Part shown: one piece after another, positions 10,700-64,000 of the stretch
Position numbering within the stretch: the first letter of the stretch is position 1
Layout: each line of letters begins with the position of its first letter
NCBI GenBank assembly: GCA_964016885.1
Contig: OZ024748.1
Location: 18,538,001 to 18,602,000, forward strand
DNA length: 64,000 nt
Direction: 5' to 3'
DNA from: Eledone cirrhosa
Taxonomy: Eukaryota
The notes under the pieces: generated by a model
The model's database searches: none
The model's input: the letters and a program-made list of their open reading frames with translations, nothing else
What the model was told of the DNA's origin: nothing
Translations under genes and position numbers: made by a program

Positions 10700-13600
10700 A
10701 TGGGACTGAAGTGGGACTGGTGGAAGACACACAACACCACAGACAGTGTTGTAGTGTGTATGGGACTGGTGGAAGACACACAACACCAGAGACAGTGTTG
10801 TAGTGTGTATAGGACTGGTGGAAGACACACAACACCACAGACAGTGTTGTAGTGTGTATAGGACTGGTGGAAGACACACAACACCACAGACAGTGTTGTA
10901 GTGTGTATGGGACTGGTGGAAGACACACAACACCACAGACAGTGTTGTAGTGTGTATGGGACTGGTGGAAGACACACAACACCAGAGACAGTGTTGTAGT
11001 GTGTATAGGACTGGTGGAAGACACACAACACCACAGACAGTGTTGTAGTGTGTATGGGACTGGTGGAAGACACACAACACCACAGACAGTGTTGTAGTGT
11101 GTATAGGACTGGTGGAAGACACACAACACCAGAGACAGTGTTGTAGTGTATATAGGACTGGTGGGAGACACACAACACCACAGACAGTGTTGTAGTGTGT
11201 ATGGGACTGGTGGAAGACACACAACACCACAGACAGTGTTGTAGTGTGTATGGGACTGGTGGAAGACACACAACACCACAGACAGTGTTGTAGTGTGTAT
11301 GGGACTGGTGGAAGACACACAACACCACAGACAGTGTTGTAGTGTGTATAGGACTGGTGGAAGACACACAACACCAGAGACAGTGTTGTAGTGTGTATAG
11401 GACTGGTGGAAGACACACAACACCACAGACAGTGTTGTAGTGTGTATAGGACTGGTGGAAGACACACAACACCACAGACAGTGTTGTAGTGTGTATAGGA
11501 CTGGTGGAAGACACACAACACCACAGACAGTGTTGTAGTGTGTATAGGACTGGTGGGATACACACAACACCACAGACAGTGTTGTAGTGCGTATAGGACT
11601 GGTGGAAGACACACAACGCCAGAGACAGTGTTGTAGTGTGTATAGGACTGGTGGAAGACACACAACACCAGAGACAGTGTTGTAGTGTGTATAGGACTGG
11701 TGGGATACACACAACACCACAGACAGTGTTGTAGTGTGTATAGGACTGGTGGAAGACACACAACACCACAGACAGTGTTGTAGTGTGTATGGGACTGGTG
11801 GAAGACACACAACACCACAGACAGTGTTGTAGTGTGTATAGGACTGGTGGAAGACACACAACACCACAGACAGTGTTGTAGTGTGTATAGGACTGGTGGA
11901 AGACACACAACACCACAGACAGTGTTGTAGTGTGTATGGGACTGGTGGAAGACACAACACCATAGACAGTGTTGTAGTGTGTATAGGACTGGTGGAAGAC
12001 ACACAACACCAGAGACAGTGTTGTAGTGTGTATAGGACTGGTGGGAGACACACAACACCACAGACAGTGTTGTAGTGTGTATAGGACTGGTGGGATACAC
12101 ACAACACCACAGACAGTGTTGTAGTGTGTATAGGACTGGTGGAAGACACACAACACCACAGACAGTGTTGTAGTGTGTATGGGACTGGTGGAAGACACAC
12201 AACACCACAGACAGTGTTGTAGTGTGTATAGGACTGGTGGAAGACACACAACACCACAGACAGTGTTGTAGTGTGTATAGGACTGGTGGAAGACACACAA
12301 CACCACAGACAGTGTTGTAGTGTGTATAGGACTGGTGGAAGACACACAACACCACAGACAGTGTTGTAGTGTGTATGGGACTGGTGGAAGACACAACACC
12401 ATAGACAGTGTTGTAGTGTGTATAGGACTGGTGGGAGACACACAACACCACAGACAGTGTTGTAGTGTGTATGGGACTGGTGGAAGACACACAACACCAC
12501 AGACGGTGTTGTAGTGTGTATAGGACTGGTGGAAGACACACAACACCACAGACAGTGTTGTAGTGTGTATAGGACTGGTGGAGGACACACAACACCACAA
12601 ACAGTGTTGTAGTGTATATAGGACTGGTGGGAGACACACAACACCACAGACAGTGTTGTAGTGTGTATAGGACTGGTGGAAGACACACAACACCACAGAC
12701 AGTGTTGTAGTGTGTATGGGACTGGTGGAAGACACACAACACCACAGACAGTGTTGTAGTCTGTATGGGACTGGTGGGAGACACACAACACCACAGACAG
12801 TGTTGTAGTGTGTATAGGACTGGTGGAAGACACACAACACCACAGACAGTGTTGTAGTGTGTATAGGACTGGTGGAAGACACACAACACCACAGACAGTG
12901 TTGTAGTGTATATAGGACTGGTGGGAGACACACAACACCACAGACAGTGTTGTAGTGTGTATGGGACTGGTGGGAGACACACAACACCACAGGCAGTGTT
13001 GTAGTGTGTATGGGACTGGTGGGAGACACACAACACCACAGGCAGTGTTGTAGTGTGTATAGGACTGGTGGAAGACACACAACACCACAGACAGTGTTGT
13101 AGTGTGTATGGGACTGGTGGAAGACACACAACACCACAGACAGTGTTGTAGTGTGTATAGGACTGGTGGAAGACACACAACACCACAGACAGTGTTGTAG
13201 TGTGTATAGGACTGGTGGAAGACACACAACACCAGAGACAGTGTTGTAGTGTGTATAGGACTGGTGGAAGACACACAACACCACAGACAGTGTTGTAGTG
13301 TGTATGGGACTGGTGGAAGACACAACACCACAGACAGTGTTGTAGTGTGTATAGGACTGGTGGAAGACACACAACACCAGAGACAGTGTTGTAGTGTGTA
13401 TAGGACTGGTGGAAGACACACAACACCACAGACAGTGTTGTAGTGTGTATGGGACTGGTGGAAGACACACAACACCACATACAGTGTTGTAGTGTGTATG
13501 GGACTGGTGGAAGACACACAACACCACAGACAGTGTTGTAGTGTGTATAGGACTGGTGGGATACACACAACACCACAGACAGTGTTGTAGTGTATATAGG

Positions 13601-13915
13601 ACTGGTGGGAGACACACAACACCACAGACAGTGTTGTAGTGTGTATGGGACTGGTGGAAGACACACAACACCACAGACAGTGTTGTAGTGTGTATGGGAC
13701 TGGTGGGAGACACACAACACCACAGACAGTGTTGTAGTGTGTATAGGACTGGTGGAAGACACACAACACCACAGACAGTGTTGTGGTGTGTATGGGACTG
13801 GTGGGAGACACACAACACCACAGACAGTGTTGTAGTGTGTATAGGACTGGTGGGATACACACAACACCACAGACAGTGTTGTAGTGTGTATAGGACTGGT
13901 GGAAGACAACCACAG
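10700..13915. repeat. 49-bp tandem satellite, about 65 units (ggactggtggaagacacacaacaccacagacagtgttgtagtgtgtatr)
   Basis: Period 49 read directly (10861 to 10910); the 49-aa period of the three minus-strand ORFs agrees. Confidence 0.97.
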
Positions 13916-42639: not shown

Positions 42640-43010
42640 TTCTAAACCAGAGGTTCTCAAACCTTTTGGGCACCGCCCCTCACGCCCACGTAATACCCTC
42701 AGCGTCCCGCACCCCTATTTCCACAGAGACCCGCCTACACGCAAATTGTAAATGATATATAATAAATAAAATCGTTCATATATATACAATAAATAATATA
42801 TGCTATGTATAAACAAATATATATATTTTTTATTTTACTATATATATATACATATATATATATATATGTGTGTGTGTGTGTATCATTTGATATTTAATAT
42901 ACTATTATATCATCTCTACCGCCCCCACCACCACCCTGGACCTTCTCAACGCCCATCCGAGGGTGGGGGCATGGACAGTAACGCCCACTTTCAGAACCTC
43001 TGTTCTAAAC
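42640..43010. mobile_element. hAT (Charlie-like) MITE at 42648-43002 with 8-bp TSD
   Basis: TSD TTCTAAAC at 42640-42647 and 43003-43010; TIRs CAGAGGTTCTCAAA / TTTCAGAACCTCTG. Confidence 0.92.
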
Positions 43011-45682: not shown

Positions 45683-46513
45683 AGCCATGGGAAAACGTTT
45701 TTGAGCCGTGGGCCGCATAGGACATTGTGCCCCGTCATAAGGTGGGCCGCATAGGATATGGAGCCTATCATAAGGCAGGCCACATAGGACATGGTGCCCC
45801 GTCATAAGGTGGGCCGCATAGGATATGGAGCCTATCATAAGGCAGGCCACATAGGACATGGTGCCCCCTCATAAGGGTGGCTATATAGGATATGGAGCCT
45901 ATCATACGACAGGCCACATAGGACATGGTGCCCCGTCATAAGGCGGGCCATATAGGATATGGAGCCTATCATACGACAGGCCACATAGGACATGGTGCCC
46001 CCTCATAAGGGTGGCCATATAGGATATGGAGCCTATCATAAGGCGGGCCATATAGGATATGGTGCCCCATCATAAGGTGAGTAACATAGGATATAGTACC
46101 TCGTCATAAGGTGGGCAACATAGGATATGGTGCCCCGTCATAAGGTGAGTAACATAGGATATGGTACCTCGTCATAAGGTGGGCAACATAGGATATGGTG
46201 CCTCGTCATAAGGTGAGTAACATAGGATATGGTACCTCGTCATAAGGTGGGCAACATAGGATATGGTGCCCCGTCATAAGGTGAGTAACATAGGATATAG
46301 TACCTCGTCATAAGGTGGGCAACATAGGATATGGTGCCTCGTCATAAGGTGAGTAACATAGGATATGGTACCTCGTCATAAGGTGAGTAACATAGGATAT
46401 AGTACCTCGTCATAAGGTGGGCAACATAGGATATGGTGCCCCGTCATAAGGTGGGCAACATAGGATATAGTACCTCGTCATAAGGTGGGCAACATAGGAT
46501 ATGGTGCCTCGTC
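45683..46513. repeat. 33/34-bp minisatellite, about 24 units, starting from a hAT-like terminus
   Basis: cataggatatggtgccccgtcataaggtgggcaa units, preceded by cagccatgggaaaacgtttttgagccgtgggccgc. Confidence 0.9.
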
Positions 46514-46605
46514 AAACCACTAAAAACTCAAGGCGACTTTGAAATTAGGTGAGCTATTCGGAATGCCAAACGGGTCGCAGTAGTCACACACACACACCTC
46601 TCCTT

Positions 46606-46651
<46 letters not shown>

Positions 46652-46676
46652 AAGAGAGAGAGAGAGAGAGAGAGAA

Positions 46677-46739
<63 letters not shown>

Positions 46740-46984
46740 GAGAGAAACAAAGATTTAGTTATATTAGAAATGAATATAACAGGTTAGAGGCGGCCTTGAT
46801 TATGTCTGTTTGATCAGAACAGGCCTGGGGTTAAAGGAAACATCCTCTCAAATTCGCCAAGTTCCCTACCTACCAAACAACTCACAATAAATTGCTCTCT
46901 TCTTCAGACGACCTTAGTATTAGATCTGTGTGTGTGTGTGCTTAATACATAGACAAATACACTTCGGACTAGCTTAGTATTATA

Positions 46985-47067
46985 TATACATACATACATA
47001 TATATAATCCTGCGGGTGCGCAGGTGAAACTCCAGAGTAACAAGGCGCACTACTTAGCCATAAATAA

Positions 47068-47137
<70 letters not shown>

Positions 47138-48542
47138 GTAAATAAAGAGAGAGAGAGATGTAAAATCGCGACCGCGGCTTCAATCGGTTTCGGCTTGTGC
47201 ATATATATATGCATACACCTATCAAATAGAAATAACTAAGGTCTAAATTCAAACAATATCATACACACATATAAAAACAAACCCAACGAAGGCTGCGGTC
47301 TAAAATAAACTGGCCCACAATGAAAAGAAAAATCCCATTAAAAGTTTGAATCTAAAAAGATATATACATGGTGTCCCCAAAAGTTGTATACACACTTTGA
47401 TTAGAATGCTGCCATTTACCTGTCTATATTTACAAAGCCCCAAATATAAAGACGTTTATCGATACACAATTGGCTGTTGAAGGTTTGTCTCTGAAAAAAT
47501 AAAATAATAATAATAATTGTTTCTACTTTAGGCACAAGGCCAGCAATCACCCAGTGCATTACTAATAATAATAATATATATATATATAACACACGCAGTT
47601 AAACCATCGATTTTACGAACTAATTATGGGAGGTATGTCCGAGAGTCCTAGGTAACACACGGTTAATTTTTACTGTTATAATGTAAAAAACAAAACAAGC
47701 TTTCATACAATATACATTGGTGGACAGTATTAAAATAATGAATATGCCATGTTTTTTGTATCTCGACAGTGTAGTTTGCTGTGATCGTTGTGGTAGTACA
47801 ATATTGTTTTTATTATTAATTATTATTACCATTATATCTATTTTGTTTTCTGTAAGCACCCCCACCCCCGGGTACCTGTTCTTTGTATTGTCCCCTATAT
47901 GTCGGCCCTTGTGGCCAATAAAGAAATAATTATCATTATCATGTCGTCGTCGTCGACGAAGCTACACCACGCCGCCGTTCGGGCGTCGGCCGAGGTTAAC
48001 TTTGCCTTTCATCCTTACAGGGTCGATAAAATAAAGTACCAGTGTGCGCTGGATTGGCAGTATCGGTAGAGGGTCGGACGCCATGCTTTGACGCATAGAG
48101 TTACGGCCCTTGCCATTCTGAGTTCAAATCCCGCCGAGGTTAACTTTGCTTTTCACCCTAAAGGGGTCGATAAAATAAAATACCAGTAATACACTGGGTT
48201 TTGCTGGCCTTGTGTCAAAACTAGAAACAGTTATCATTTAGTGCATTAAATGCAAAATCCGTTAAAAACGAGGTCCGTTCAAAAGAAGAAGATTCGGGGT
48301 ATTAGGGTATTTAATATTTTCATCCTTCCGGGGCCAAACTCTCTCTATCTATATATCTATCTATACACACACAAGTACTGGTTAAACAGTGAAGTAGATT
48401 AATCAATTAAACTCGATCCTAGAAGTTATATATGGCCTTGCGCCAATGTCAGAAAATATTTATGCATAAATCAATCATTATTTATGAGTCGCTCTGTACT
48501 ATATACACGCCATTTTATGATATATATATAAAAACACCCTCC

Positions 48543-48575
<33 letters not shown>

Positions 48576-51500
48576 GAAACATACATTATATATATATATA
48601 TATATACAGACACACACTCCCTCTCTCTCTCTCTATATATATATATATACGTACACAAACATACTATTTATATATATATACACAAACAGACACCGTCTCT
48701 CTCTCATATATATATATATATATAATTATATACATGCATACACACCCACGATTCTATAATTGTGCCGATAAATTGCTATAATTGAAGACGCAGATATACA
48801 ATACAGGATATTAAAATATATTTAGAGAAACACTACCAGTTGCTTTACGTTGTAAAATAATGTCAATCGAATGTTACCTAATATTATTCGGTTTGAATAA
48901 CAAAAAACAACAAAAGAGATCGATAAATTAAGTACCAGACTTGAAAAAATATGTACTGAAGTCGATATGGTTAATTAAAATCAAGGCGGTGCCCTAGTAT
49001 GGCCGCAATCAAATAATAGGAAACACACACACACATATGAGAGAGAGTGTGTGTGCGTGTGTGTGTGGATGTATATTATCCGCACAGTTATGAATGGCTT
49101 TATATATATGTGCGTATGTGTGAATGTATATGGTACATATATGTGTGAAATATATGTCATGTTTAATACAGAAATGGCTCCTACAGGACTAGAGCTGTTT
49201 TATCGATAATGTGAATTATATGATCGAATATAAAGCGAGTACAAGAGAACTTAGTGAAGTTTGTGGCACATTTGACCAAGTGAAGGTCAGAGAGGAAGAG
49301 AGACTGAGTGTGGTGAAGGAAGTGAAAGAAATAGTTAGTGGTAAGGGTGGAGGCGGTGGTGATGGGTAGATTTAGAAGTAGATAGAGGATACAAAATAAA
49401 TAGGGAGATAGATGGGTAAGATAAGGGGGCTAGGATTAAATTAATTGAAGTATAGAGAAAAAAAGACCAGGACGAGATTACTGTGCGTGTATAAATCTTA
49501 TATATATATATATACACACACACAGCTCTGAAGTGAAATATACAGCGATCATCGATATACGTAGAACACACAATATTGTGAAATAGACACATCTCGACCC
49601 ATTGAAATTGAAATCGCAATATATTCGGGTTTGAGCAGATACTCTCTCTCATATATATGAGAGAGAGAGAGAATCTATATTTTATGGAGAGGGGGGGGGG
49701 GTTAAGCAGATGAATAGAATTAATTCATCCTGTAATATTTAGAAAGAAAAAAAATATAAATATAAAAGGAAGAAAATGTATTGGTTGTGATGAAGAAGAC
49801 TAAGAAATAATATAAACAGACCGATAGACAGACTAACAAAAGACAGAACGTTATATATATATATATATAGTGACCAAGGGAATGGTCCCCCAGAAAATAT
49901 TAAACGACGGACGGTTTGTAGTTTGTACGAACCGAGTGAAGCTAGCATACTAATTACAGTAGCAAATGGCAGCTACCAAAATAGTCATATCTGCAGCAAA
50001 GACACACAGACACATACACACACGAACATAATAGAGATAGATAGAGTGGTAGATAGATTGGTAGATAAATAAATATTATATATTGGTATATAGATATATG
50101 ATAGTTAAATATGTACTGTAGATAGATAGACAGACGCATATAACAGATATAGAGTGGTGGATACACTGATAGATAGATAGATTGATAGGTATTAATAGGT
50201 GCAGAGGGATATGTTAAATATGTACTGTAAGCTAGACAGACACACACGAACATAGCAGATATAGATAGATAGATAAATGAATAGGTATTATATATAGGTA
50301 CATAGATAATTATGTTAAATATGTACTGTAGATATATAGCTAGATAAAAAGACATACAGCAGATATATGTGTAAATAGGTAGATAGACACACCAGCCAAA
50401 TATATAGCTTAAATAGATGTCTAAATAGGCGCACACGATAGATAGACAGATAGATATGTATAATTAACACAATGAACAAAAAAAAGCTAGGTAGGTAGGT
50501 AGGCAGGTGTTTTAATGCGATTAGTAAGTAAAAAGTCGGAAGATTTGGTAAAAAATCCATCAGAATGCTCAGTTACAATGTACATATATATATATATATA
50601 AAATATATACTTATATATAGTCTGATCATATAAATAAGAATCGGAGTAAGTGAAAAATACGAGGGTAGGAGAGGAAAAACAGTTGGACTACGTATGGTGG
50701 TGGTGTTGATAGTAGTTGTGGTATTGAAGGTGGTGGTTGATATAGTAGAGGCTGTGGGTAAATGGTGATGGTAGTAGTGGTGTGTTGTTATTGATGATGA
50801 TGGTGATAGAGGAGGTAGCTGTATTGATAATTATATTAGTAGCGGTTATAGTGGTGATGGTTTTAGTGGCAGTAGTAGTGGAGGTTTAATCATTTGGTTC
50901 ATAGAGGGTTGGCTGTACATTTTTTTTCACCTTAAACCCTTTGAAAAATAAAAAATAATTACAATGATTATCATTACCACCACTATTACAACTCAGATGC
51001 CGCAGCGCAGTGGTTAAATTCTCGGTGATCCGAGCGAGAATCACAAACACGGTTTCGCTTTCAAGAACACTTCATTCCATTCCACTTCACTTCTAAGAAA
51101 TGCAAATGCCACCACTTGTTAAATTCCGTTCCCTTATAAAAAAATATTTCTCAGGCGCCACGACTCTATAACAAACAACCCCCTATTCCGTTTCATCATA
51201 TCTTCGCGGTAGGGGACTCACATACATCAAACCCAGACAATATTTAATCGACTACTAATACACCATCAGTAGTAATAATAATAACGATTTCTACTATAGG
51301 CACAGGCCCAGCAATTTTGGGGGAGGGGAAAGTCAACTAAATCAACCTCAGTGCGTTAATTCGTAGCCATTATTATATGGGTAATTGCTGGTCTTGTGCC
51401 AAAAGTAGAAACAATTATTATTATTATTGTCTTTGTCAACCCCCTCACTATTCTAAAAGGATACAAATTGAAGTGGCAAACTACATGGGAGAGAAAGCGG

Positions 51501-51581
51501 GGTTAAATATTACAATGGGAGGTAGGGGGTGATGGAAGGATACACAAAATTTAAAGGGCAATAACAAGAGTATATTACATT
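46985..51581 (+). repeat. Segmental duplication, copy 1 (paralog at about 59295-63910)
   Basis: Collinear near-identical blocks at an offset of about 12.3 kb (49161=61421, 50521=62781, 51481=63801). Confidence 0.93.
47936..48237 (+). mobile_element. Young composite family A SINE insertion with TSD ttatcat
   Basis: A box TGGCAGTATCGG, B box GAGTTCAAATCC; empty site present in the paralog at about 60423-60440. Confidence 0.88.
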
Positions 51582-51681
<100 letters not shown>

Positions 51682-51900
51682 TTTAAAGGGTTTTTCAGAG
51701 AGAGTGCGTTGTATATATGTAGATGTAATGAAACCTTTACCAGTAGTATCGTTACTAAATAAGATAATGATAATAAGGACGAATGAGGTGATGATAATAT
51801 TTTTCTTTTCATAAAAAAAAAATATATATATAATAATAAACAAGAAGGAGGGTTTAATTTGTACATCCCCATTTATTTTATCGTTTAAAACCCTGGTTTT

Positions 51901-51986
51901 TGGAGGTGGATAATGATTTTCATGGTGATTATATCTCTTTCTCTCTCTATATATATATCACCATGAAAATCATTACCCCACCTCCA
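51901..51986. repeat. 29-bp inverted repeat around a (TC)n(TA)n loop
   Basis: tggaggtggataatgattttcatggtgat / atcaccatgaaaatcattaccccacctcca. Confidence 0.85.
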
Positions 51987-53264
51987 CCACACCAGCACTT
52001 CAAACAACGAAAAGTGGTTTTCAACTGGGACCTAGACCGAGAAAGTAATCAACAACTATAAATATTCCTATAATTATAATAAATTGATTAAGAAATCAAG
52101 AAAGACAGTAGAGTCCCATCAGAGAAATAAAACCGTAGAACAGCTGTAATGGAAGGAATAAAATAGAGATGATGATGACAATGAATAGGAACAGACAGAT
52201 TAAGGAAATATTTTGTGGTGTGTTTGTTATAAGTATAACACTCACACTATATGTGTGTGTGTGTGTGTGTGTGAAGAGGGCACGCAAATTTGACACCGAG
52301 GGAAATATTGTGATAGAATTGTTATATATATATATATACAGACACAAACACATTTTTAGAAAGGATATATATATATAAATAAATACACACACGTCTGTCT
52401 GTGTGTGTTTCTTCTGCTGCTATTCTGCCACTGTCATTTATTTCAAAGATGTTTTGGTAGTTGATTTATTTTGGCTTGTTATTAAACCCATGACCATCTC
52501 TCTCGACATTCATTTTATTTATATCATCTCATTATTAGAAAACGACACATAGATCTACGGGCCAGATAGGGGAGTAGGCAAGCGTAAACAGATAAATTGG
52601 ATAATTAGATAAACACAGATAGATACGTAATTTTCGGGGTTTTTTTTTCATATTTTCTTGACTTAAATTTCAAGATGAATCGTAAAAAGAGAAGCAATAG
52701 AAAGATAAAAGAGAAAACGCATATATACAAACATATATATATTATAAACATTATTCTTCTTATTATTTTTGGTACCAGTGACATTCTAAAAAGGGACAAT
52801 CAACTGGCAAAATGATTGCTATCTGAGCTATTAAGTGGTAGCTTTATAAAAACCTCAAATGAACACCTTTACACTACTATATATAAATATATACATACAT
52901 ATTCAAAAATATACACACATTTATATATGTCTATATACATTCTCTATCTCTCTCTATATATATATATATCTACTATAGCCTATATCTATTTATATATACA
53001 TATATATCTATTTCCAACAGGCAATGACAACGAAAGGGAGAGAGAAAGAGAGAACGAGCTAGAGAGAGAGTGGTGTCTTGACGTAATGAACATATATATA
53101 CATGTATTCAATTTGTTAAAAATACAGGCAATCGGTAGACAAATATCGACATTATTTTAACACCGATTGTTTAAATGTGTGAAATGATAACGATAATGAC
53201 AATTTTAATTGAATATATCGATGAGAATTGTATATTTGAGTGAAACGAAAATGATATTTCTTAC

Positions 53265-53300
53265 CTGAGTCGCCTCCACAACTCTCGCCAAAGCAACCAT
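53265..53300 (-). CDS. Candidate first coding exon MVALARVVEATQ of an unidentified gene
   Basis: ATG at 53300 runs in frame to a consensus donor CAG|gtaaga; a second donor GGA|gtaagt at 53310 follows an upstream ATG (MFDVTGR); non-repetitive, CpG-containing context. Confidence 0.3.
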
Positions 53301-53319
53301 TAAAACTTACTCCTTCCTG

Positions 53320-53700
53320 TGACGTCAAACATTTGTGTGTAAAACTTTCAGCTTTTGTTGTTTTTTATTTTCTCTCTCAAAATATATATTTATTCCTGTT
53401 TTTTTTATTTTATTATAAATAAAATACAAATGAAAATTTCTCTTCTCGAAACGGAACGTTGGTAATTAATTTAATCTGTATGTAAATTTATTGAAAAAAA
53501 AACCTCAACAAAATGTAGAAAATTGTATGACTACGAAAAAAAGTATGAAGGTTTGAAAATATCCTACAGCTTATCACCATTGTACGTCAACAAAACATGT
53601 TAACTTCTGTAAGGTTGACACGCATAACCGGAGGTGAACTTTGGCGAGCTGTATGAGGTCAAGGGGCAGATCAGTTGAGGTCACAGCATCTCTTATTTTT
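53320..53700. promoter_or_regulatory. Promoter-like region with a CRE and nuclear-receptor half-sites
   Basis: TGACGTCA 53320-53327; TGAACTTTG 53635-53643; AGGTCA-A-GGGGCA 53656-53668; AGGTCA 53678-53683. Confidence 0.35.
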
Positions 53701-54124
53701 CCAGTTTTTACCATTATTAACCTGACTAACATAACGCAAACAACTATATTTACGCAGCAGCCACTTATTACAGAAAGACGACAGAAAGGAACTTAATTAA
53801 CAAACACACAATCCAAAGAAAGAAAAGGGTGGGTGAAAAAAGCCCCATCAAAACCAAGCGAAGTTTTGAGAAATGTTTTATAGTATTATATTTTACACTT
53901 GAAATCTAAAGAAAGTTGATATCTACTTTGCATCTTTCAGTAGAAAGAACCAGTTATATAGTTCGCCACCATCACATCGCTACTTGTAAGTACCAAGATC
54001 ACCATCGTTACCGCTACTACCAGCGCCAATCGGGGAATTATTTAAATATATATATATATTATTAAAACACCTTGTATATTTTACACACGCAATACACACA
54101 CACACTCATATATATATATATATA

Positions 54125-54440
54125 TAATTGTTTCTACTTTTGGCACAAGGCCAGCAAATACATTACTGGTACTTTATTTTATCGACCCCGTAAAGTTGAA
54201 AGGCAAAGTTAACCTCGGCGGGATTTGAACTCAGATCATATATATATATATATATAATTGTTTCTACTTTTTGGCTCAAGCCCAGCAATAAGCCAGTGCA
54301 TTACTGGTACTTAATTGTATCGACCCCGTAAGGATGAAAGGTAAAGTTAACCTCGGCGGGATTTGAACTCAGAATGGCAAGGGCCGTAAGTTTATGCGTC
54401 AAAGCATGGCGTCCGACCCTCAACCGATACTGCCAATCCA
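54125..54440 (-). mobile_element. Two tandem young family A SINEs in (TA)n
   Basis: Second copy is near full length with intact CpGs (gcatggcgtccgaccctcaaccgatactgccaatcc). Confidence 0.85.
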
Positions 54441-54759
54441 ACGATATAATAATATATAAGGAACAAAGAATCAGTGTTGCTTCATATACATATTTATTAC
54501 ACATGTTTCATTGTCGATCAGCTCGAGGAACGATCTATTAATGATCGAACTGATTCTGGAATCGGAAGCTCCTCAGTTATGTTTTAATATGCATTCTCGC
54601 ATTAGGCACACACTTGTGCATACTTAATTGTTGGTTATAAAAGCTACGTCGTTCTTTTACTCATGCCATTGTTTCGTTCGTTCTTGTTTTTAAACAAACC
54701 AACAAAACTATATATATATATATGCATAGGTTATACTTAATTTGTTGGGATTCAACAAA

Positions 54760-55361
54760 TATATATAAACAAATATATATATATATATATATAAACAAAT
54801 ATATATATATATATATATAAACAAATATATATATATATATATATAAACAAATATATATATATATATATATAAACAAATATATATATATATATATATATAA
54901 ACAAATATATATATATATATATATATAAACAAATATATATATATATATATATATAAACAAATATATATATATATATATATAAACAAATATATATATATAT
55001 ATATATAAACAAATATATATATATATATATATAAACAAATATATATATATATATATATATAAACAAATATATATATATATATATATATAAACAAATATAT
55101 ATATATATATATATAAACAAATATATATATATATATATATAAACAAATATATATATATATATATATAAACAAATATATATATATATATATATAAACAAAT
55201 ATATATATATATATATATAAACAAATATATATATATATATATATAAACAAATATATATATATATATATATAAACAAATATATATATATATATATATAAAC
55301 AAATATATATATATATATATATAAACAAATATATATATATATATATAAACAAATATATATA

Positions 55362-55450
<89 letters not shown>

Positions 55451-55545
55451 AAATATATATATATAAACAAATATATATATATATATATATATATAAACAA
55501 ATATATATATATATATATATATATAAACAAACAATATATATAAAC
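54760..55545. repeat. (AT)n array punctuated by AAACAA every ~26-28 bp
   Basis: Period 26 (54793, 54819, 54845); about 28 units. Confidence 0.95.
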
Positions 55546-56039
55546 AAACCAACAAGCTTTAAAAGAAAAAATCATCATCACCACTCATCATCATTGACAC
55601 TAACCTATATTATGATAATAATCATTAGCGGTGTGCAACATCCAACATTATTTTGATCTTTGCCTTTCATCCTTACGAGGTCAATAAAATAAATTACCAG
55701 TAATACACTGATTTAATTGCCGGCCTTGTGCCAAAAAGTAGAAACAATTATTTTGATCAGAAGAAATTAACTTATCTAAATTCTAGGTAAGCTTAGCTTT
55801 TCTTTTCCTTTTTACTTCTAAATATCCTCTTTCTCACTTTTTTCTTATTTTGTAAAAGAATAAAATTAGATTAAAATAAAATCACTCGAAATCTTCTATT
55901 TAGTAATTTTGTGATCTCATCCAACCCACTTTAACTTTATTATATTATATATATATGAGATCACACTGATGGTAAAAACTATGCACATATTTAATATAAT
56001 GTAGTTAATCACTACCATTTCAAAATATTTCAATATATA

Positions 56040-56079
<40 letters not shown>

Positions 56080-56139
56080 GTGAGGTTTCTTTTACAAAAT
56101 GAAAAATAACCGAGGTGTCCTACACGAGTGAAAGTATAA

Positions 56140-56353
56140 AGAAAAAAAGATGAAATCGAAAATGCAACTGGAGTCTTATTTTTTTTTTTTAAATATTTAT
56201 ATTTATTTATGTGAGAAAAACCACAGACCCTCCATCTCAACTCTACTTTTGAAAAGCAGAAGAACTGCGAAACCGGTAAAGGAACCAAATAAATATATAT
56301 ATTTAAAAAAAAAATAAGACTCCAGTTGCATTTTCGATTTCATCTTTTTTTCT
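56140..56353 (+). ncRNA. Minimal type-I hammerhead motif (56246-56281) inside a ~68-bp inverted repeat
   Basis: ctt-TTGAAAA-gcag-aagaa-ctgc-GAAA-CCGG-TA-aag; arms 56140-56208 and 56287-56353 are near-perfect reverse complements. Confidence 0.65.
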
Positions 56354-56901
56354 ATATATATATATAACAGCATTCAATGTGTATACACATATAGCGTGTG
56401 TATATATATATAAACACACACACACAATACGTGCCTTTATAACACACAGATACACATACATTCACAAATACCATATAGGTATTCATAACACACAAGAGAC
56501 ACCATCTAATAAGGTGCACTCTCTCTATTGCATGATATGCACCTCACAATGCATTTTGAGTTTCGGCTTACTGTACACTTTCACTACACGCACATAATAA
56601 ATATATTATATATGTAATATATGTTCATATAAACACACCTTAATCTATAGTTTATACATCACAGAAATAGACGTGGATGGATGTTTAATACATGAACACA
56701 TGCACGCTCTATATATTTATAATACATATATATTTATATACACTTTATATGTATCTATATTTTACACATTTATAACGTACATACATAGATGAACACACGC
56801 ACACATTGTGTTTATAATACGCTTATACTACACACTCACATTTATATATACATGAACATACATACACATACGTTTATTATATACTCTTACACAACACCTA
56901 T

Positions 56902-56992
56902 GTGTTTATAATTGTTTCTACTTTAGGCACAAGGCCAGCAAATTACTCAGTGCATTACTGGTACTTTATTTTATCGACCCCGTGTTTATAAT
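56902..56992 (-). mobile_element. Severely 5'-truncated family A SINE with an 11-bp TSD
   Basis: gtgtttataat at 56902-56912 and 56982-56992. Confidence 0.88.
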
Positions 56993-58113
56993 ACTCTTAC
57001 ACAATACACACATGCAACAGCTTTTGTCTTCGTTCATCGAATGAAAAATGTTGGAACCGCACTTACACATAATACCACTTTCTATGTATTTACCACACAC
57101 ACTGACGTACGTATTCTCGTCACTTTAGTTCCTGTAATTAAATAAACCAACTCGCACACAGATCGATTTTGGAAATCTGTTGAAAACAAATCAATTGACA
57201 ATCATTCCCATATAATTCGTTAAGTATCAACAACTTTATATATATATTTATTTATATTTCATTATAATTATTATTTTACCGAATTTAAAATGTTATAAGT
57301 AGTTGTGGCAGTATAAGTTGCGTGAGGTGGTTGTGTGCTGTCAGGGATTCCACAGTGTTTAAAGGGGCACCAATATAAGGGCCTTCGAAAAAAATTTCAA
57401 CCAGGAACCCCATAACCAGCTTACTCTGATCCTAGTTATGGGGACAGGAAGTATGAGAGGTGACTGATTGACAAACTTCAATAAGACCCACAACGAATTT
57501 AACGTAAAAAAATCCACTAAAAATAAGGCCAGCAATTTGAAGGGAAGGGGAGAGTCGATTAAATCGACCCCGTAAGGATGAAAGGTAAAGCTATAAGACC
57601 AAGTGATATTTGTGTGTGTGTGTGGGGGGGGGGGGGGGGATAATAATATTATATGATATGAAATACGATAATAACCTGAGAGTCATTGTCAGAAAATTAG
57701 CCTAATAACTTCTTTGGTTCCTTTTACTCCTTTTGGAACATTGGATGACAAGAGGTCTCTCTCAATACAGTAGGTTTGCTAAATCTGTTATGGGACTGAT
57801 CCCAGACTAGGGCCCATATCTGCCAGATGTTCCCTTCACAGACCCCCTGTCATGTGACTGCTCACAGTTTACTGGGTTCATTTTATCATGGCACCAATTG
57901 ATGTCTTTAAATATATGGCTTTGGTTTAATCTTGATCTATTTACATTCCATTTAAGGCAATTGGTATACTATCATCATCATCTCTCTGTGTTGGCAGTCG
58001 CTCATAATTAAATATGACTTTGTAGCAGAAAAGATTTTTATTTTGATAAAATATGTACCAGACTTAAAAATTAGTATTTGGGTTTGATCTGATTAATAAA
58101 ATACTTTTTACAG

Positions 58114-58145
<32 letters not shown>

Positions 58146-58149
<4 letters not shown>

Positions 58150-58536
58150 GCTAGCATGGAAAACCAGACATAAAATGTTGATGAGCTCCAGTTTCCATTT
58201 ACCAAATTTTACTTACAACAAGGCACTGGTTAATTGGTTAACATGAAGCTATAGAAGACACTTGCTCAAGATACTATCATCATCATCATTTTATGTTCAT
58301 TTTCTCACGCTAGCATGGGTTAGACACACACACATATAAATATATGCTAGCGTGGAAAACCAGACATAAAATGATGATGAGCTCTAATGGGTCTCTGCAC
58401 AGTTTCCATTTACCAAATTTTACTTACAAGGCACTGATTAATTGGCTAACGTGAAGCTATAGTAGAAGACACTTGCTCCAGTTACTATCATCATCATCAT
58501 TTTATGACCATTTTTCTACGCTAGCATGGGTTAGAC
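58146..58536. repeat. ~195-bp tandem duplication containing opposed RTE-type tails
   Basis: gctagcrtggaaaaccagacataaaatg...catcattttatg...cgctagcatgggttagac occurs twice. Confidence 0.8.
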
Positions 58537-59436
58537 GAATTGTCCTGTTGTGGGCAATGCTAGGTCAGGTGATACAGAACTGATTTTGGCTTGGTTTCCG
58601 TAGCTGGATGCCCTTCCTAACGCCAACCTCATTTACAGTGAGTACTGGGTGCTTTTTGTCGTGACACTTACACGACCACTTTATCATGTGGGAGTGTGGG
58701 GTGGGGCATACTGTATATGCCCCATGCCCCACCCCACCGTCTAACTGTAAATTGGTCATGTAGGCATCGCGACAAAATGCACCCAGCTCACACTGTAAAG
58801 TGTTTGTGTACCATATAGGTAATTATGCAAATGGTAACATTGCAACTGCAAACCTCATTACTATTCCCCAGGCAAATATCTAGAGATGGGTTGAGAAAAG
58901 AAAAAATGTCAAACCCTTAGACTTCAAAAGATCTCTCGGTGTGGTGAAGGAATTTGTTTCCCAACCATGTGGAACTTTGGGCTAGTGTCTTCTATAGCTT
59001 TGGTAGATGGTGTCAGAGAGTAATAGAATAAAGAATATGAGTGTATCATTAGAAACTAATGTTTACTCCATCACTACTCTGAGTTTCTGGCAAGCTATCT
59101 ATACATTGGTTCAGACGATGCAATTATAAGTCCCATCATCAGCAGCATTGTCATCATCATTGTTCTCAACATCATCTGTTTTCAATAAATAATCTCTACA
59201 GGTTCTGTATATTTTTCTTCATTTGTTCACGTGAACACACACTGATATACATACATATCACATAGAAATAACTAAGGTATAATATCAAACAAGTGTATAC
59301 ATACATATATATGATCTTGCGTGTGCGCAGGTGAAACTCCAGACTAACAAGGCTCACTACTTAGCCATATATATATATTATATTGAGTTCTTCATGCAGA
59401 CTGGACCCCACAACTTACCGTGAATATCTCTGTATG

Positions 59437-59477
<41 letters not shown>

Positions 59478-59695
59478 ATCCTGACCGCGGCGCCAAGCGG
59501 TTTCGGCTTGTATATATATACGCATACACCTATATGAAAATAGATCTATCAAACAGAAATAACTAAGGTCTAAATTCAAACAATATCATACACACACATC
59601 AAAACAAACCCAACGAAGGCTGCGGTCTAAAATAAACTGGCCCACAATCAAAAGAAAAATCACATTAAAAGTATGAATCTAAAAAGTATATATAT

Positions 59696-59778
59696 ATACA
59701 TGGTGTCCCCAAAAGATGTATACACAGTTTGATTAGAATTCTGTTGAAGTGTGTATGCATTTTGGGGGACACCCTGTA
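59696..59778. mobile_element. Tc1/mariner-like micro-MITE in (TA)n
   Basis: TA-CATGGTGTCCCCAAAA...TTTTGGGGACACCCTG-TA; only the left half is present in copy 1 (about 47365-47405). Confidence 0.75.
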
Positions 59779-59947
59779 TATAATATATTTTTTGTATATA
59801 CAGACAGATCTGACATACAAATCTGCCATTTACCTGTCTATATTTACAAAGTTCTATCAAAGCCCAAAATATAAATACGTTTTACGATACACAATTGGCT
59901 GTTGAAGGTTTTTCTCTTGGAATTTAAAAAAAAAAAAAATTGATATA

Positions 59948-60092
59948 CAGGTAAAATTCTATTATAACGTATTTTTTAGTATAACGAAATTTTTTTAATC
60001 ACCAGCCACACGGTCGATATTGTTATGAAGAATTTTTCGTTACAACGAATTTTTTTATACCCCGTGAACTTCGTTATAACAAAATTTCACTG
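59948..60092. mobile_element. Tigger/pogo-like MITE, private to duplication copy 2
   Basis: CAGGTAAAATTCTATTATAACG...CGTTATAACAAAATTTCACTG. Confidence 0.75.
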
Positions 60093-60870
60093 AATATATA
60101 CTTACACGATCGATTTTACGAACTAATTATGGGAGTCCGAAGTAGCCCCCAGGGTATTTTTAATGTTATTAATGTAAAAAACAAAACAAACTTTCATACA
60201 ATATACATTGGTGGACAGTATTAAAATAATGAATATGCAATAATGTTTTTTTGTATCTCGACAGTGTAGTTTGCTGTGATCGTTGTGGTAGTATAATATT
60301 GTTTTATTATTAATTATTATTACCATTATATCTATTTTGTTTTCTGTAAGCACCCCACCCCCGGGTACCTGTTCTTTGTATTGTCACCTATATGTCGGCC
60401 CTTGTAGCCAATAAAGAAATAATTATCATTATCATTTAGTGCGTTAAATCCAAAATCCGTTAAAAACGAGGTCCGTTCAAAGGAAGAAGATTCGGGGTAT
60501 TAGGGTATTTAATATTTTCATCCCTCCGGGGCCAAACTCTCTCTCTATCTATATATACACACACAAGTACTGGTTAAACAGTGAAATAGATTAATCAATT
60601 ATACTCGATCCTAGAAGTTATATATGGTCTTGCGCCAATGTCAGAAAATATTTATATTCAATATAATATCTATCTAAATGCATAAATCAATCATTATTTA
60701 TAAGCCGCTCTATACTATATACAGGTCATTTTATGATATATATAAATATATACATACACAAACACCCTCCAGATATATATATATATATACACACACACAC
60801 AGAAACATACGATATATATATACATCCCCCTCTCTCTCTCTCTCTCTATATATATATACAAATATACGCA

Positions 60871-60906
<36 letters not shown>

Positions 60907-61279
60907 GTACACAAACATACTATTTATATATATATACACAAACAGACACCGTCTCTCACTCATATGTATATATATATAATTATATACATGCATACACACC
61001 CACGATTCTATAATTGTGCCTATAAATTGCTATAATTGAAGACGCAGATATACAATACAAGATATTAAAATATATTTAGAGAAACACTACCAGTTGCTTT
61101 ACATAGTAGAATAATGTCAATCGAATGTTACCTAATATTATTCGGTTTGAATAACAAAAAACAACAAAAGAGATCGATAAATTAAGTACCCGACTTGAAA
61201 AAATATGTACTGGAGTCGATATGGTTAATTAAAATCAAGGTGGTGCCCTAGCATGACCGCAATCAAATAATAATAGGAA

Positions 61280-61327
<48 letters not shown>

Positions 61328-64000
61328 ATATTATACGCACTCTTATGAATGACTGTTTATATCTGTGTGCGTGAATGTATATATGATATGGTACATATAT
61401 GTGTGTGAAATATATGTCATGTTTAATACAGAAATGGCTCCTACAGGACTAGAGCTGTTTTATCGATAATGTGAATTATATGATCGAATATAAAGCGAGT
61501 ACAAGAGAACTTAGTGAAGTTTGTGGCACATTTGACCAAGTGAAGGTCAGAGAGGAAGAGAGACTGAGTGTGGTGAAGGAAGTGAAAGAAATAGTTAGTG
61601 GTAAGGGTGGAGGCGGTGGTGATGGGTAGATTTAGAAGTAGACAGAGGATACAAAATAAATAGGGAGATAGATGGGTAAGATAAGGGGGCTGGGATTAAA
61701 TTAATTGAAGTATAGAGAAAATAAGACCAGGACGAGATTACTGTGCGTGTATAAATCTTATATATATATATATATACACACACACAGCTCTGAAGTGAAA
61801 TATACAGCGATCATCGATATACGTAGAACACACAATATTGTGAAATAGACACATCTCGACCCATTGAAATTGAAATCGCAATATATTCGGGTTTGAGCAG
61901 ATACTCTCTCTCATATATATGAGAGAGAGAGAGAATCTATATTTTATGGAGAGGGGGGGGGGGTAAGCAGACGAATAGAATTAATTCATCCTGTAATATT
62001 TAGAAAGAAAAAAATATAAATATAAAAAGAAGAAAATGTATTGGTTGTGATGAAGAAGACTAAGAAATAATATAAACAGACCGATAGACAGACTAACAAA
62101 AGACAGAACGTTATATATATATATATATATATATATAGTGACCAAGGGAATGGTCCCCCAGAAAATATTAAACGACGGACGGTTTGTAGTTTGTAGTTTG
62201 TACGAACCGAGTGAAGCTAGCATACTAATTACAGTAGCAAATGGCAGCTACCAAAATAGTCATATCTGCAGCAAAGACACACAGACACATACACACACGA
62301 ACATAACCGAGATAGATAGAGTGGTAGATAAATAAATAAATATTGTATATAGGTATATAGATATATGTACTGTAGCTAGATAGATAGATATTAATAGGTA
62401 CATAGGGATATGTTAAATATGTACTGTAAGCTAGACAGAAACACACGGATATGGCAGAGATAGATAAATGAATGCCTTTCATCCTTACGGGGTCGATAAA
62501 ATAAAGTACCAGTAATGCACTGAGTAATTGCTGGCCTTGTGTCAAAAATAGAAACAATGAGATTTTGATACATAGATGACAGTTAAATATGTACTGTAGA
62601 TATATAGCTAGATAAAAAGACATACAGCAGATATATGTGTAAATAGGTAGATAGACACACCAGCCAAATATATAGCTTAAATAGATGTCTAAATAGGCGC
62701 ACACGATAGATATGTATAATTAACACAATGAAAAAAAAAAGCTAGGTAGGTAGGTAGGTAGGCAGGTGTTTTAATGCGATTAGTAAGTAAAAAGTCGGAA
62801 GATTTGGTCAAAAATCCATCAGAATGCTCAGTTACAATGTACATATATATATATATATAAAATATATACTTATATATAGTCTGATCATATAAATAAGAAT
62901 CGGAGTAAGTGAAAAATACGAGGGTAGGAGAGGAAAAACAGTTGGACTATGTATGGTGGTGGTGTTGATAGTAGTGGTGGTTGTGATAGTAGTTGTGGTA
63001 TTGAAGGTGGTGGTGGTGGTTGATATAGTAGAGGCTGTGGGTAAATGGTGATGGTAGTAGTGGTGTGTTGTTATTGATGATGCTGATAGAGGAGGTAGCT
63101 GTATTGATAATTATATTAGCGGTTATAGTGTGGTGGTGGTAGTGGTGATGGTTTTAGTGACAGTAGTAGTGGTGATGGTTTTAGTGGCAGTAGTAGTGGT
63201 GATGGTTTTAGTGGCAGTAGTAGTGGGGGTATAATCATTTGGTTCATAGAGGGTTGGCTGTACATTTTTTTTTTCAACTTAAACCCTAAGACATCATCAT
63301 TATCATCTTTGAAAAATAAAAAATAATTACAATGATTATCATTACCACCACCACCACCACTATTACAACTCAGATGCCGCAGCGCAGTGGTTAAATTCTC
63401 GGTGATCCGAGTGAGATTCACAAACACGGTTTCGCTTTCAAGTACACTTCATTCCATTCCACTTCACTTCTAAGAAATGCAAATTCCATCCCCTTATAAA
63501 AAATATTTCTCAGGCACCACGACCCTATAACAAACAACCGCCCCCCCCCCCCCCCCATTCCGTTTCATCATATCTCCGCGGTGGGGAACTCACATACATC
63601 AACACCAGACACGATTTAATCGACTACTAATACACCATCAGTAGTAATAATAATAACGATTTCTACTATAGGCACAGGCCCAGCAATTTTGGGAGAGGGG
63701 AAATTCGACTAAATCGACCCCAGTGCGTTAATTCGTAGCCATTATTATTAGTGTTTTAAAAGGATTATTATTTTAAAATGATACAAATTGAAGTGACAAA
63801 CTACATGGGAGAGAAAGAGGGGATAAATATTACAATGGGAAGGGGGGGGGGGGGGTGACGGAAGGATACACAACAAAATTTAAAGGGCAATCACAAGAGT
63901 ATATTACATATGTATATATATATATCTTTATTTTTATTCTTCTTATGACAGCTGAATGAGTTGGGGTACAGAACCCAACGAAACGTAAGCACCTGTTTAT

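Follow-up and report, generated by a model that had tools for sequence, protein, structure and literature searches.

A short head-to-head insertion of an abundant Penelope-like element with a U3-A8 hammerhead motif in the genome of Eledone cirrhosa

Among the self-cleaving motifs described so far, the closest to the one considered here are the hammerheads of Penelope-like elements (PLEs) in S. mansoni (Cercyon) and other metazoans, which lie in the pLTR, combine a short stem I, a G10.1-C11.1 pair and a palindromic stem III, and for which U3-A8 covariation as well as opposite-strand pairs 100-700 bp apart are described (PMC4209133). The U3-A8 form of the S. mansoni Cercyon elements was given its own descriptor in 2014, with about 1,300 matches, and the same account gives a low activity, even as dimers, for PLE hammerheads (PMC4209133). 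Natural U3-A8 covariation together with activity in vitro is also on record for other hammerheads (PMC3088659). With respect to the elements themselves, PLEs of the Neptune/Nematis type with a C-terminal endonuclease (EN) are described as encoding, in this order, a reverse transcriptase (RT), a CX2-5CxxC linker and a GIY-YIG domain, with an upstream overlapping ORF, and partial tandems, inverted 5'-truncated copies with a tail at one end and (TA)n targets belong to their known arrangements (PMC8557442). For PAc, a Poseidon PLE of the green anole, it is reported that two RT starts define the tail, that both strands of an AT-rich target are cut and extended, and that uncut RNA is the main template (PMC11167929). 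Non-LTR retrozymes, finally, are described as PLE-related non-coding DNA built of head-to-tail tandem units with a type-I hammerhead in each (PMC7229834; bioRxiv 10.64898/2026.07.22.740005).

The window analysed here is a stretch of 64,000 nucleotides from the 3.0 Gb genome of Eledone cirrhosa (GenBank assembly GCA_964016885.1, contig OZ024748.1, C8 in the contig numbering used below, positions 18,538,001 to 18,602,000 of the forward strand). We read its positions 56075-56353, with a probability of roughly 0.8, as a small insertion derived from an abundant, autonomous PLE and made up of two 3'-end pieces that meet head to head within a (TA)n tract, the family-wide U3-A8 pair of its hammerhead motif being likely compensatory and predicted to keep a weak, dimer-dependent self-cleavage. 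The Eledone family shares with the hammerheads of PMC4209133 the location, motif layout, U3-A8 covariation and opposite-strand pairs listed above, but differs from them, as far as they are described there, by a 4-bp stem II, by the lack of an extra nucleotide after A9, by an A17 that can pair with U3, and by its at least 17,000 near-identical copies. It likewise shares the named coding and structural features of the Neptune/Nematis elements, its tail of about 62 nt contrasting with the 30-40 nt given for these (PMC8557442). The likeness to PAc would extend to the two tail-defining RT starts, the cutting and extension of both strands of an AT-rich target and the use of uncut RNA; however, PAc has a C3-G8 pair and an ORF that starts inside the ribozyme (PMC11167929), whereas in tandems of the Eledone element the predicted cut precedes the ORF1 ATG by 168 nt. 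Although PLE-related and provided with a type-I hammerhead, the window sequence is not a non-LTR retrozyme either, as it contains one motif in a head-to-head arrangement instead of head-to-tail units each with a hammerhead.

Layout of the insertion

The insertion is 279 bp long and is flanked by the (TA)n microsatellite that served as its target, on the left at 56033-56074 and on the right at 56354-56367. Both of its parts are 5'-truncated 3' ends of the parent element, and positions in them are counted here from the predicted cut (0). The inverted piece (56075-56208, minus strand) runs from +9 to +141, includes the tail, lacks the hammerhead and is 91.9% identical to the unit of the partial tandem L108; the direct piece (56209-56353, plus strand) runs from -69 to about +79, is tail-less, reaches 93.3% to the same unit and starts 3 nt inside the main 5' boundary of the family (-72, the likely transcription start). 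The optional tail (+80 to +141), i.e. the segment between the family's two 3' ends, occupies 56075-56134 on the minus strand and lies outside the coordinates of a previous, sequence-only reading of this DNA. That reading had correctly placed the structure between (TA)n tracts, but these tracts flank 56075 and 56353, and the start it had set at 56140 has to be moved to 56075. The inverted arms that it reported are present, with 66 nt and 92% complementarity, and correspond to the portion shared by the two pieces. The 214-nt stretch folds at -90.7 kcal/mol (z = -16.4), and 0 of 200 shuffles folded as well.

Within the direct piece, a minimal type-I hammerhead motif with a 3-bp stem I, a U3-A8 core, a 4-bp stem II closed by G10.1-C11.1, a palindromic stem III and A17 occupies 56246-56281 on the plus strand. 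The descriptor match comprises CTT (56246-56248), TTGAAAA (56249-56255), GCAG (56256-56259), the loop (56260-56264), CTGC (56265-56268), GAAA (56269-56272), CCGG (56273-56276), TA (56277-56278) and AAG (56279-56281), the cleavage bond being predicted at 56278/56279; every part named beforehand was recovered exactly at its position. The search with a relaxed descriptor that had been proposed gave two matches in the window, this motif and one at 42660 on the minus strand with a stem-III region of 29 nt, and in a covariance-model search of 50000-64000 the Rfam hammerhead was absent among the 58 matches at E ≤ 5. Judged by its letters, the copy possesses the full minimal type-I core, namely a Watson-Crick 3-8 pair, G5, A6, A9, G12, A13, A14, A15.1-U16.1 and H17, with self-cleavage as a prediction. 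A chance origin of the motif is excluded by its copy number, since a 22-nt anchor has 17,691 matches in the genome (21,022 for an arm anchor) and the controls, including the reversed pattern, have 0.

The window copy has no ORF, no TATA box and no second hammerhead copy in the window, and no plausible coding frame of at least 120 codons was found within 46000-64000. It is an ordinary transposon remnant, and a likely inert one because it has neither a TATA box nor a partner ribozyme on its own strand.

Other repeats are found in the same window. A dispersed SINE-like repeat occurs in both orientations at 54106-54459, 55658-55736 and 56922-56983, and flanking repeats seem to resemble octopus SINEs. 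At 51899-51982 there is a near-perfect hairpin with a microsatellite loop, which has weak Rfam mir-29 and bantam matches far below the gathering score and is probably an inverted repeat and not a microRNA, and at 58280-58380 there is a short head-to-head inverted repeat, the 37-nt arms of which end in TCA/TGA repeats and which possibly consists of two retroelement 3' ends. The minisatellite at 10714-13908 repeats a 49-bp unit 65 times at 96% identity, and several further arrays are present in the window.

Parent element and the fixed U3-A8 pair

Of 30 loci that had been selected by the end of the GIY-YIG protein, 25 have the motif on the same strand 151-1,426 nt past the end of the GIY-YIG ORF, 23 of them at 889-1,426 nt. 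Sixteen longer loci yield a full unit of 4,682 bp, with ORF1, an overlapping ORF2, a 3' region of about 1.07 kb, the hammerhead, the arm and the optional tail in this order. While ORF1 (409 aa) gave no match in Pfam, ORF2 (775 aa) matches GIY-YIG (E 2.1e-6) and RVT_1 (E 1.3e-6, with a score of 28.7, slightly below the Pfam cut-off of 29.6), and carries a C-X4-C-X2-C linker at residue 645 of 775, before GIY-YIG; a CX2-5CxxC linker is described as a mark of Neptune and Nematis (PMC8557442). An RT and, C-terminally, a GIY-YIG in one ORF are thereby linked to the window sequence in the parent element, and the connection to PLEs that had been proposed from the motif holds. In two partial tandems (L108 and L117) the ORFs are flanked by a hammerhead at either end, and the motif is located in the 3' end (pLTR) of the parent element. 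The features that define EN+ PLEs, i.e. a pLTR generated by partial tandems, inverted 5'-truncated copies and an optional tail, are all present, and the parent is an autonomous PLE of the Neptune/Nematis type, an assignment made by the linker, the RT tree comprising unnamed relatives. Related database proteins number 823, the best of them being 75% identical.

Of note, a T-TTT-TTA heptamer occurs in the ORF1/ORF2 overlap (L108:5505-5560), its frame being the one in which a -1 ribosomal frameshift would be expected. PLE RT/GIY-YIG sequences are also found in records labelled as bacterial assemblies (L263, L264, L265; P0012, P0038, P0042, P0058), where they are likely animal DNA contamination. 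Literature searches on this PLE family in octopus and on U3-A8 gave no papers other than those cited here, Repbase and Dfam may nevertheless contain the family, and the family or its A17 variants may already be listed in Lünse et al. 2017 or in the supplements of PMC4209133 or PMC8557442.

Genome-wide, the 30-nt U3-A8 motif has 11,539 exact copies, and a C3-G8 core combined with the stem-III sequence of the family gave 8 matches, 0 of which belong to the family. Copies were sampled within the initial 38 Mb of a single contig (C1) and anchored on exact motifs, so that young copies are favoured in the samples. In these, TTGAAAA is found in 105 of 121 motif-holding pieces, the other 16 being shifted or singly changed and none having C3 with G8, and across 151 aligned copies U3 is changed in two and A8 in none. 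Since U3-A8 is nearly uniform among the copies and C3-G8 copies were not found, the change goes back to the ancestor of the family; a private two-step decay is ruled out by the 11,539 exact copies and the lack of any C3-G8 family copy. The copies fall into two subfamilies, one of 72 copies with a mean divergence of 3.9%, which includes the window copy, and one of 85 copies with 1.5% (six copies being unclassed), and all core positions are intact in both. Searches for C3-G8 alone thus overlook at least 11,500 motifs in the Eledone cirrhosa genome.

To place this pair among more distant elements, 83 loci with related ORFs were searched with a descriptor that leaves positions 3 and 8 unconstrained. 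These loci are relatives at no more than 49% identity, taken from contigs of metagenomes and genomes, the closest protein relatives (P0001-P0011, 50-75% identical) lying outside this set. The first version of the descriptor gave 24 matches, and after a later relaxation it gave 30 distinct motifs (with L198 and L265 as near duplicates), 29 of them on the ORF strand, as compared with 0.2 matches for each shuffle. All 30 hammerheads have a Watson-Crick pair at 3/8, namely 24 C-G, four U-A, one A-U and one G-C. In an RT tree of 33 out of 35 rows (two were too short and were dropped), which is rooted at the midpoint only, the family falls inside a clade (100/99) together with six further rows, all of which have C3-G8 (four of the six being labelled by a looser pattern), and U3-A8 occurs at three further places. 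Because positions 3 and 8 are paired in all 30 relatives and the family is surrounded by relatives with C3-G8, U3-A8 is likely compensatory, in agreement with the sequence-only reading, which had preferred compensation to decay unless the family should turn out to carry mostly C3-G8; such a majority was looked for and not found. The swap is therefore likely under selection, and it is already known; its novelty had been overstated, as the covariant is described in PMC4209133 and PMC3088659.

As to rare core variants linked to PLEs, A3-U8 (L228:1969), G3-C8 (L233:117) and U3-A8 with G17 (L256:1860) were encountered, and in the close relatives L184:58, L190:840 and L185:4102 stem II plus loop amount to just 8-9 nt.

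Ends of the copies, head-to-head pairs and integration

The 3' ends of 153 distinct arm-bearing pieces lie at +141 in 88 cases, at +79 in 51 and elsewhere in 14; TA repeats adjoin 113 of the 139 classed ends, and +79 and +141 ends running into TA are seen likewise in contigs of three public runs. At the other side, 76 of the 153 pieces have 5' ends at -75 to -56, with the mode at -72 (19 pieces), the main pile at -72 to -61 and a single end beyond, at -74. A TATAAAA box starts 30 nt above -72. Because a TATA box precedes half of the sampled 5' ends by 30 nt, the short pieces are likely run-off cDNAs, and the DNA ends together with this box make a transcription start at -72 likely. The start of the D. 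virilis Penelope is reported to lie within the pLTR as well, with a TATA-less promoter (PMC2377424).

Among these 153 pieces there are 40 head-to-head pairs, one of which is probably spurious. A tailed end is combined with a tail-less one in 32 pairs, seven pairs have a degraded end and one has two tail-less ends, so that 32 of 33 pairs are of the one-of-each kind, as compared with 46% expected (p 4e-10); the family's paired ends thus provide a statistical handle on the origin of PLE inverted repeats. The junctions differ from pair to pair, ranging between 59 nt below and 981 nt above the cut, and this bears on what had been proposed for the window, i.e. a small hairpin element, non-autonomous and with fixed inverted arms, that would be transcribed, cleave itself and move as a unit. 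While the strong hairpin, the commonness of head-to-head pairs (40 among 153 pieces) and the presence in this genome of non-autonomous hammerhead elements, as tandem arrays, are in line with such an element, the pairs vary in junction and arm length, the 4.7-kb element has both arms as its ordinary 3' ends, the tail sits on one arm outside the repeat, a junction like that of the window occurs in only one of the 40 pairs (L305, +9/-68, with a 17-nt insert), and the hairpin is predicted to prevent stem I. We therefore consider this proposal highly improbable and abandon it in favour of a usual head-to-head PLE insertion with variable junctions. A MITE-like inverted-repeat element was rejected as well, fixed ends and a shared internal junction being absent among the 40 pairs.

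The short insertions might, more tentatively, be regarded as a genome-wide record of Penelope integration, in which two cDNAs, from opposite strands of one break and from different RT starts, run off at the transcription start and are joined. Within the main reading given above, the element's endonuclease would cut (TA)n on both strands, each cut end would prime the synthesis of a cDNA by RT at either of two start sites inside the RNA, both cDNAs would head for the 5' end of the RNA (likely the transcription start) or halt sooner, and their joining to each other would produce the inverted repeat. In tandem full-length units the ribozyme would likely trim or decap a minority of transcripts, and insertions would be templated mostly by RNA that is uncut, or religated, at the predicted cleavage bond. 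In most copies the scissile bond is spanned intact, as in the anole element. As part of the more tentative scheme named first, the U3-A8/A17 hammerhead 72 nt below the start might act as a self-damped switch, U3 pairing with either A8 or A17, which would leave most RNA uncut for insertion and a minority decapped or circularised.

Cleavage footprint and predicted folds

If cut RNA had been copied, 5' ends should peak at +1, and the short arm of the window insertion (start +9) could then be a cDNA that ran off ribozyme-cut RNA, so that the genome would record cleavage in vivo. Several counts point in this direction: 15 of the 153 5' ends lie at +1 to +15 versus five at -20 to 0, 30 scripted junctions include 16 at +1 to +9 versus seven at -9 to -1, and about 14 of about 48 listed double-short junctions, by eye, join at +3 versus 3-5 at a stronger palindrome just above the cut. 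However, a tally by eye of 100 of the 171 listed junctions gave no clear excess at the predicted cut, with no peak at +1 (three junctions), 41 at +1 to +9, 35 at -9 to -1 and 24 further up (p 0.28), and double-short junctions number 83 versus 69 in adjacent length windows (p 0.20). All of these counts are confounded by microhomology, which, like AT palindromes and a pausing of the RT at stem I, accounts for the same ends. A footprint of cleavage in these junctions is therefore unlikely in our view.

Predicted folds give the 3-bp stem I of the window copy a pair probability of 0.002 in the whole insertion and of 0.013 in a 54-nt piece, and the 3-bp stem I of its subfamily is predicted not to form. 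In L001, stem I reaches 0.53. Stem II has a probability of 0.9, and the intermolecular stem III is put at -8.3 kcal/mol. A17, which is present in none of the 30 related hammerheads, can pair with U3, by which stem I would be extended by 1.7 kcal/mol, and in the younger subfamily the U3-A17 pair belongs to the best monomer fold (probability 0.43) as well as to the best dimer fold; this pairing, which the sequence-only reading had overlooked, is predicted to damp cleavage. For ordinary hammerheads, the analogous C3-G17 pair has been proposed as an inactive trap (PMC3884650).

The ribozyme might accordingly have the same origin but be catalytically dead or nearly so, U3-A8 having once been compensatory and now being locked by U3-A17 and a weak stem I, with the motif retained for a structural role in protein binding or in the promoter region, or through hitch-hiking. 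Besides the added 1.7 kcal/mol and the parallel with C3-G17, the junctions without a pile-up at the cut would fit a dead ribozyme, as would the report that PLE insertion in vitro is unimpaired by hammerhead mutants (PMC11167929). We nevertheless find this somewhat doubtful, as all core positions are intact in both subfamilies, the less diverged of which (1.5% vs 3.9%) has a 4-bp and not a 3-bp stem I, a single event but one toward better folding, and as an A-U trap is weaker than a C-G one. Moreover, folding of RNA alone may mislead, because the anole PLE hammerhead is described as cleaving only with protein present (PMC11167929). The young family with its many intact copies and natural U3-A8/A17 core offers a test case for PLE hammerheads, and the question of whether these must cleave at all, as it appears in PMC8557442 and PMC11167929, could be addressed with it directly.

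Two other hammerhead families of this genome form tandem arrays, for which no meaningful DNA similarity to the PLE studied here was found. One consists of retrozyme-like arrays in which each 466-bp unit carries a type-I hammerhead motif with C3-G8 (L123-L152, e.g. G000:C1:5738326-5752444), an inverted block being frequent and the genome-wide pattern matches amounting, by difference, to about 10,000. The other has a 316-bp unit (L153-L180, e.g. G000:C1:6519946-6521556) with a U3-A8 core, a different stem II and C17, and 1,223 pattern matches versus 405 in the control.
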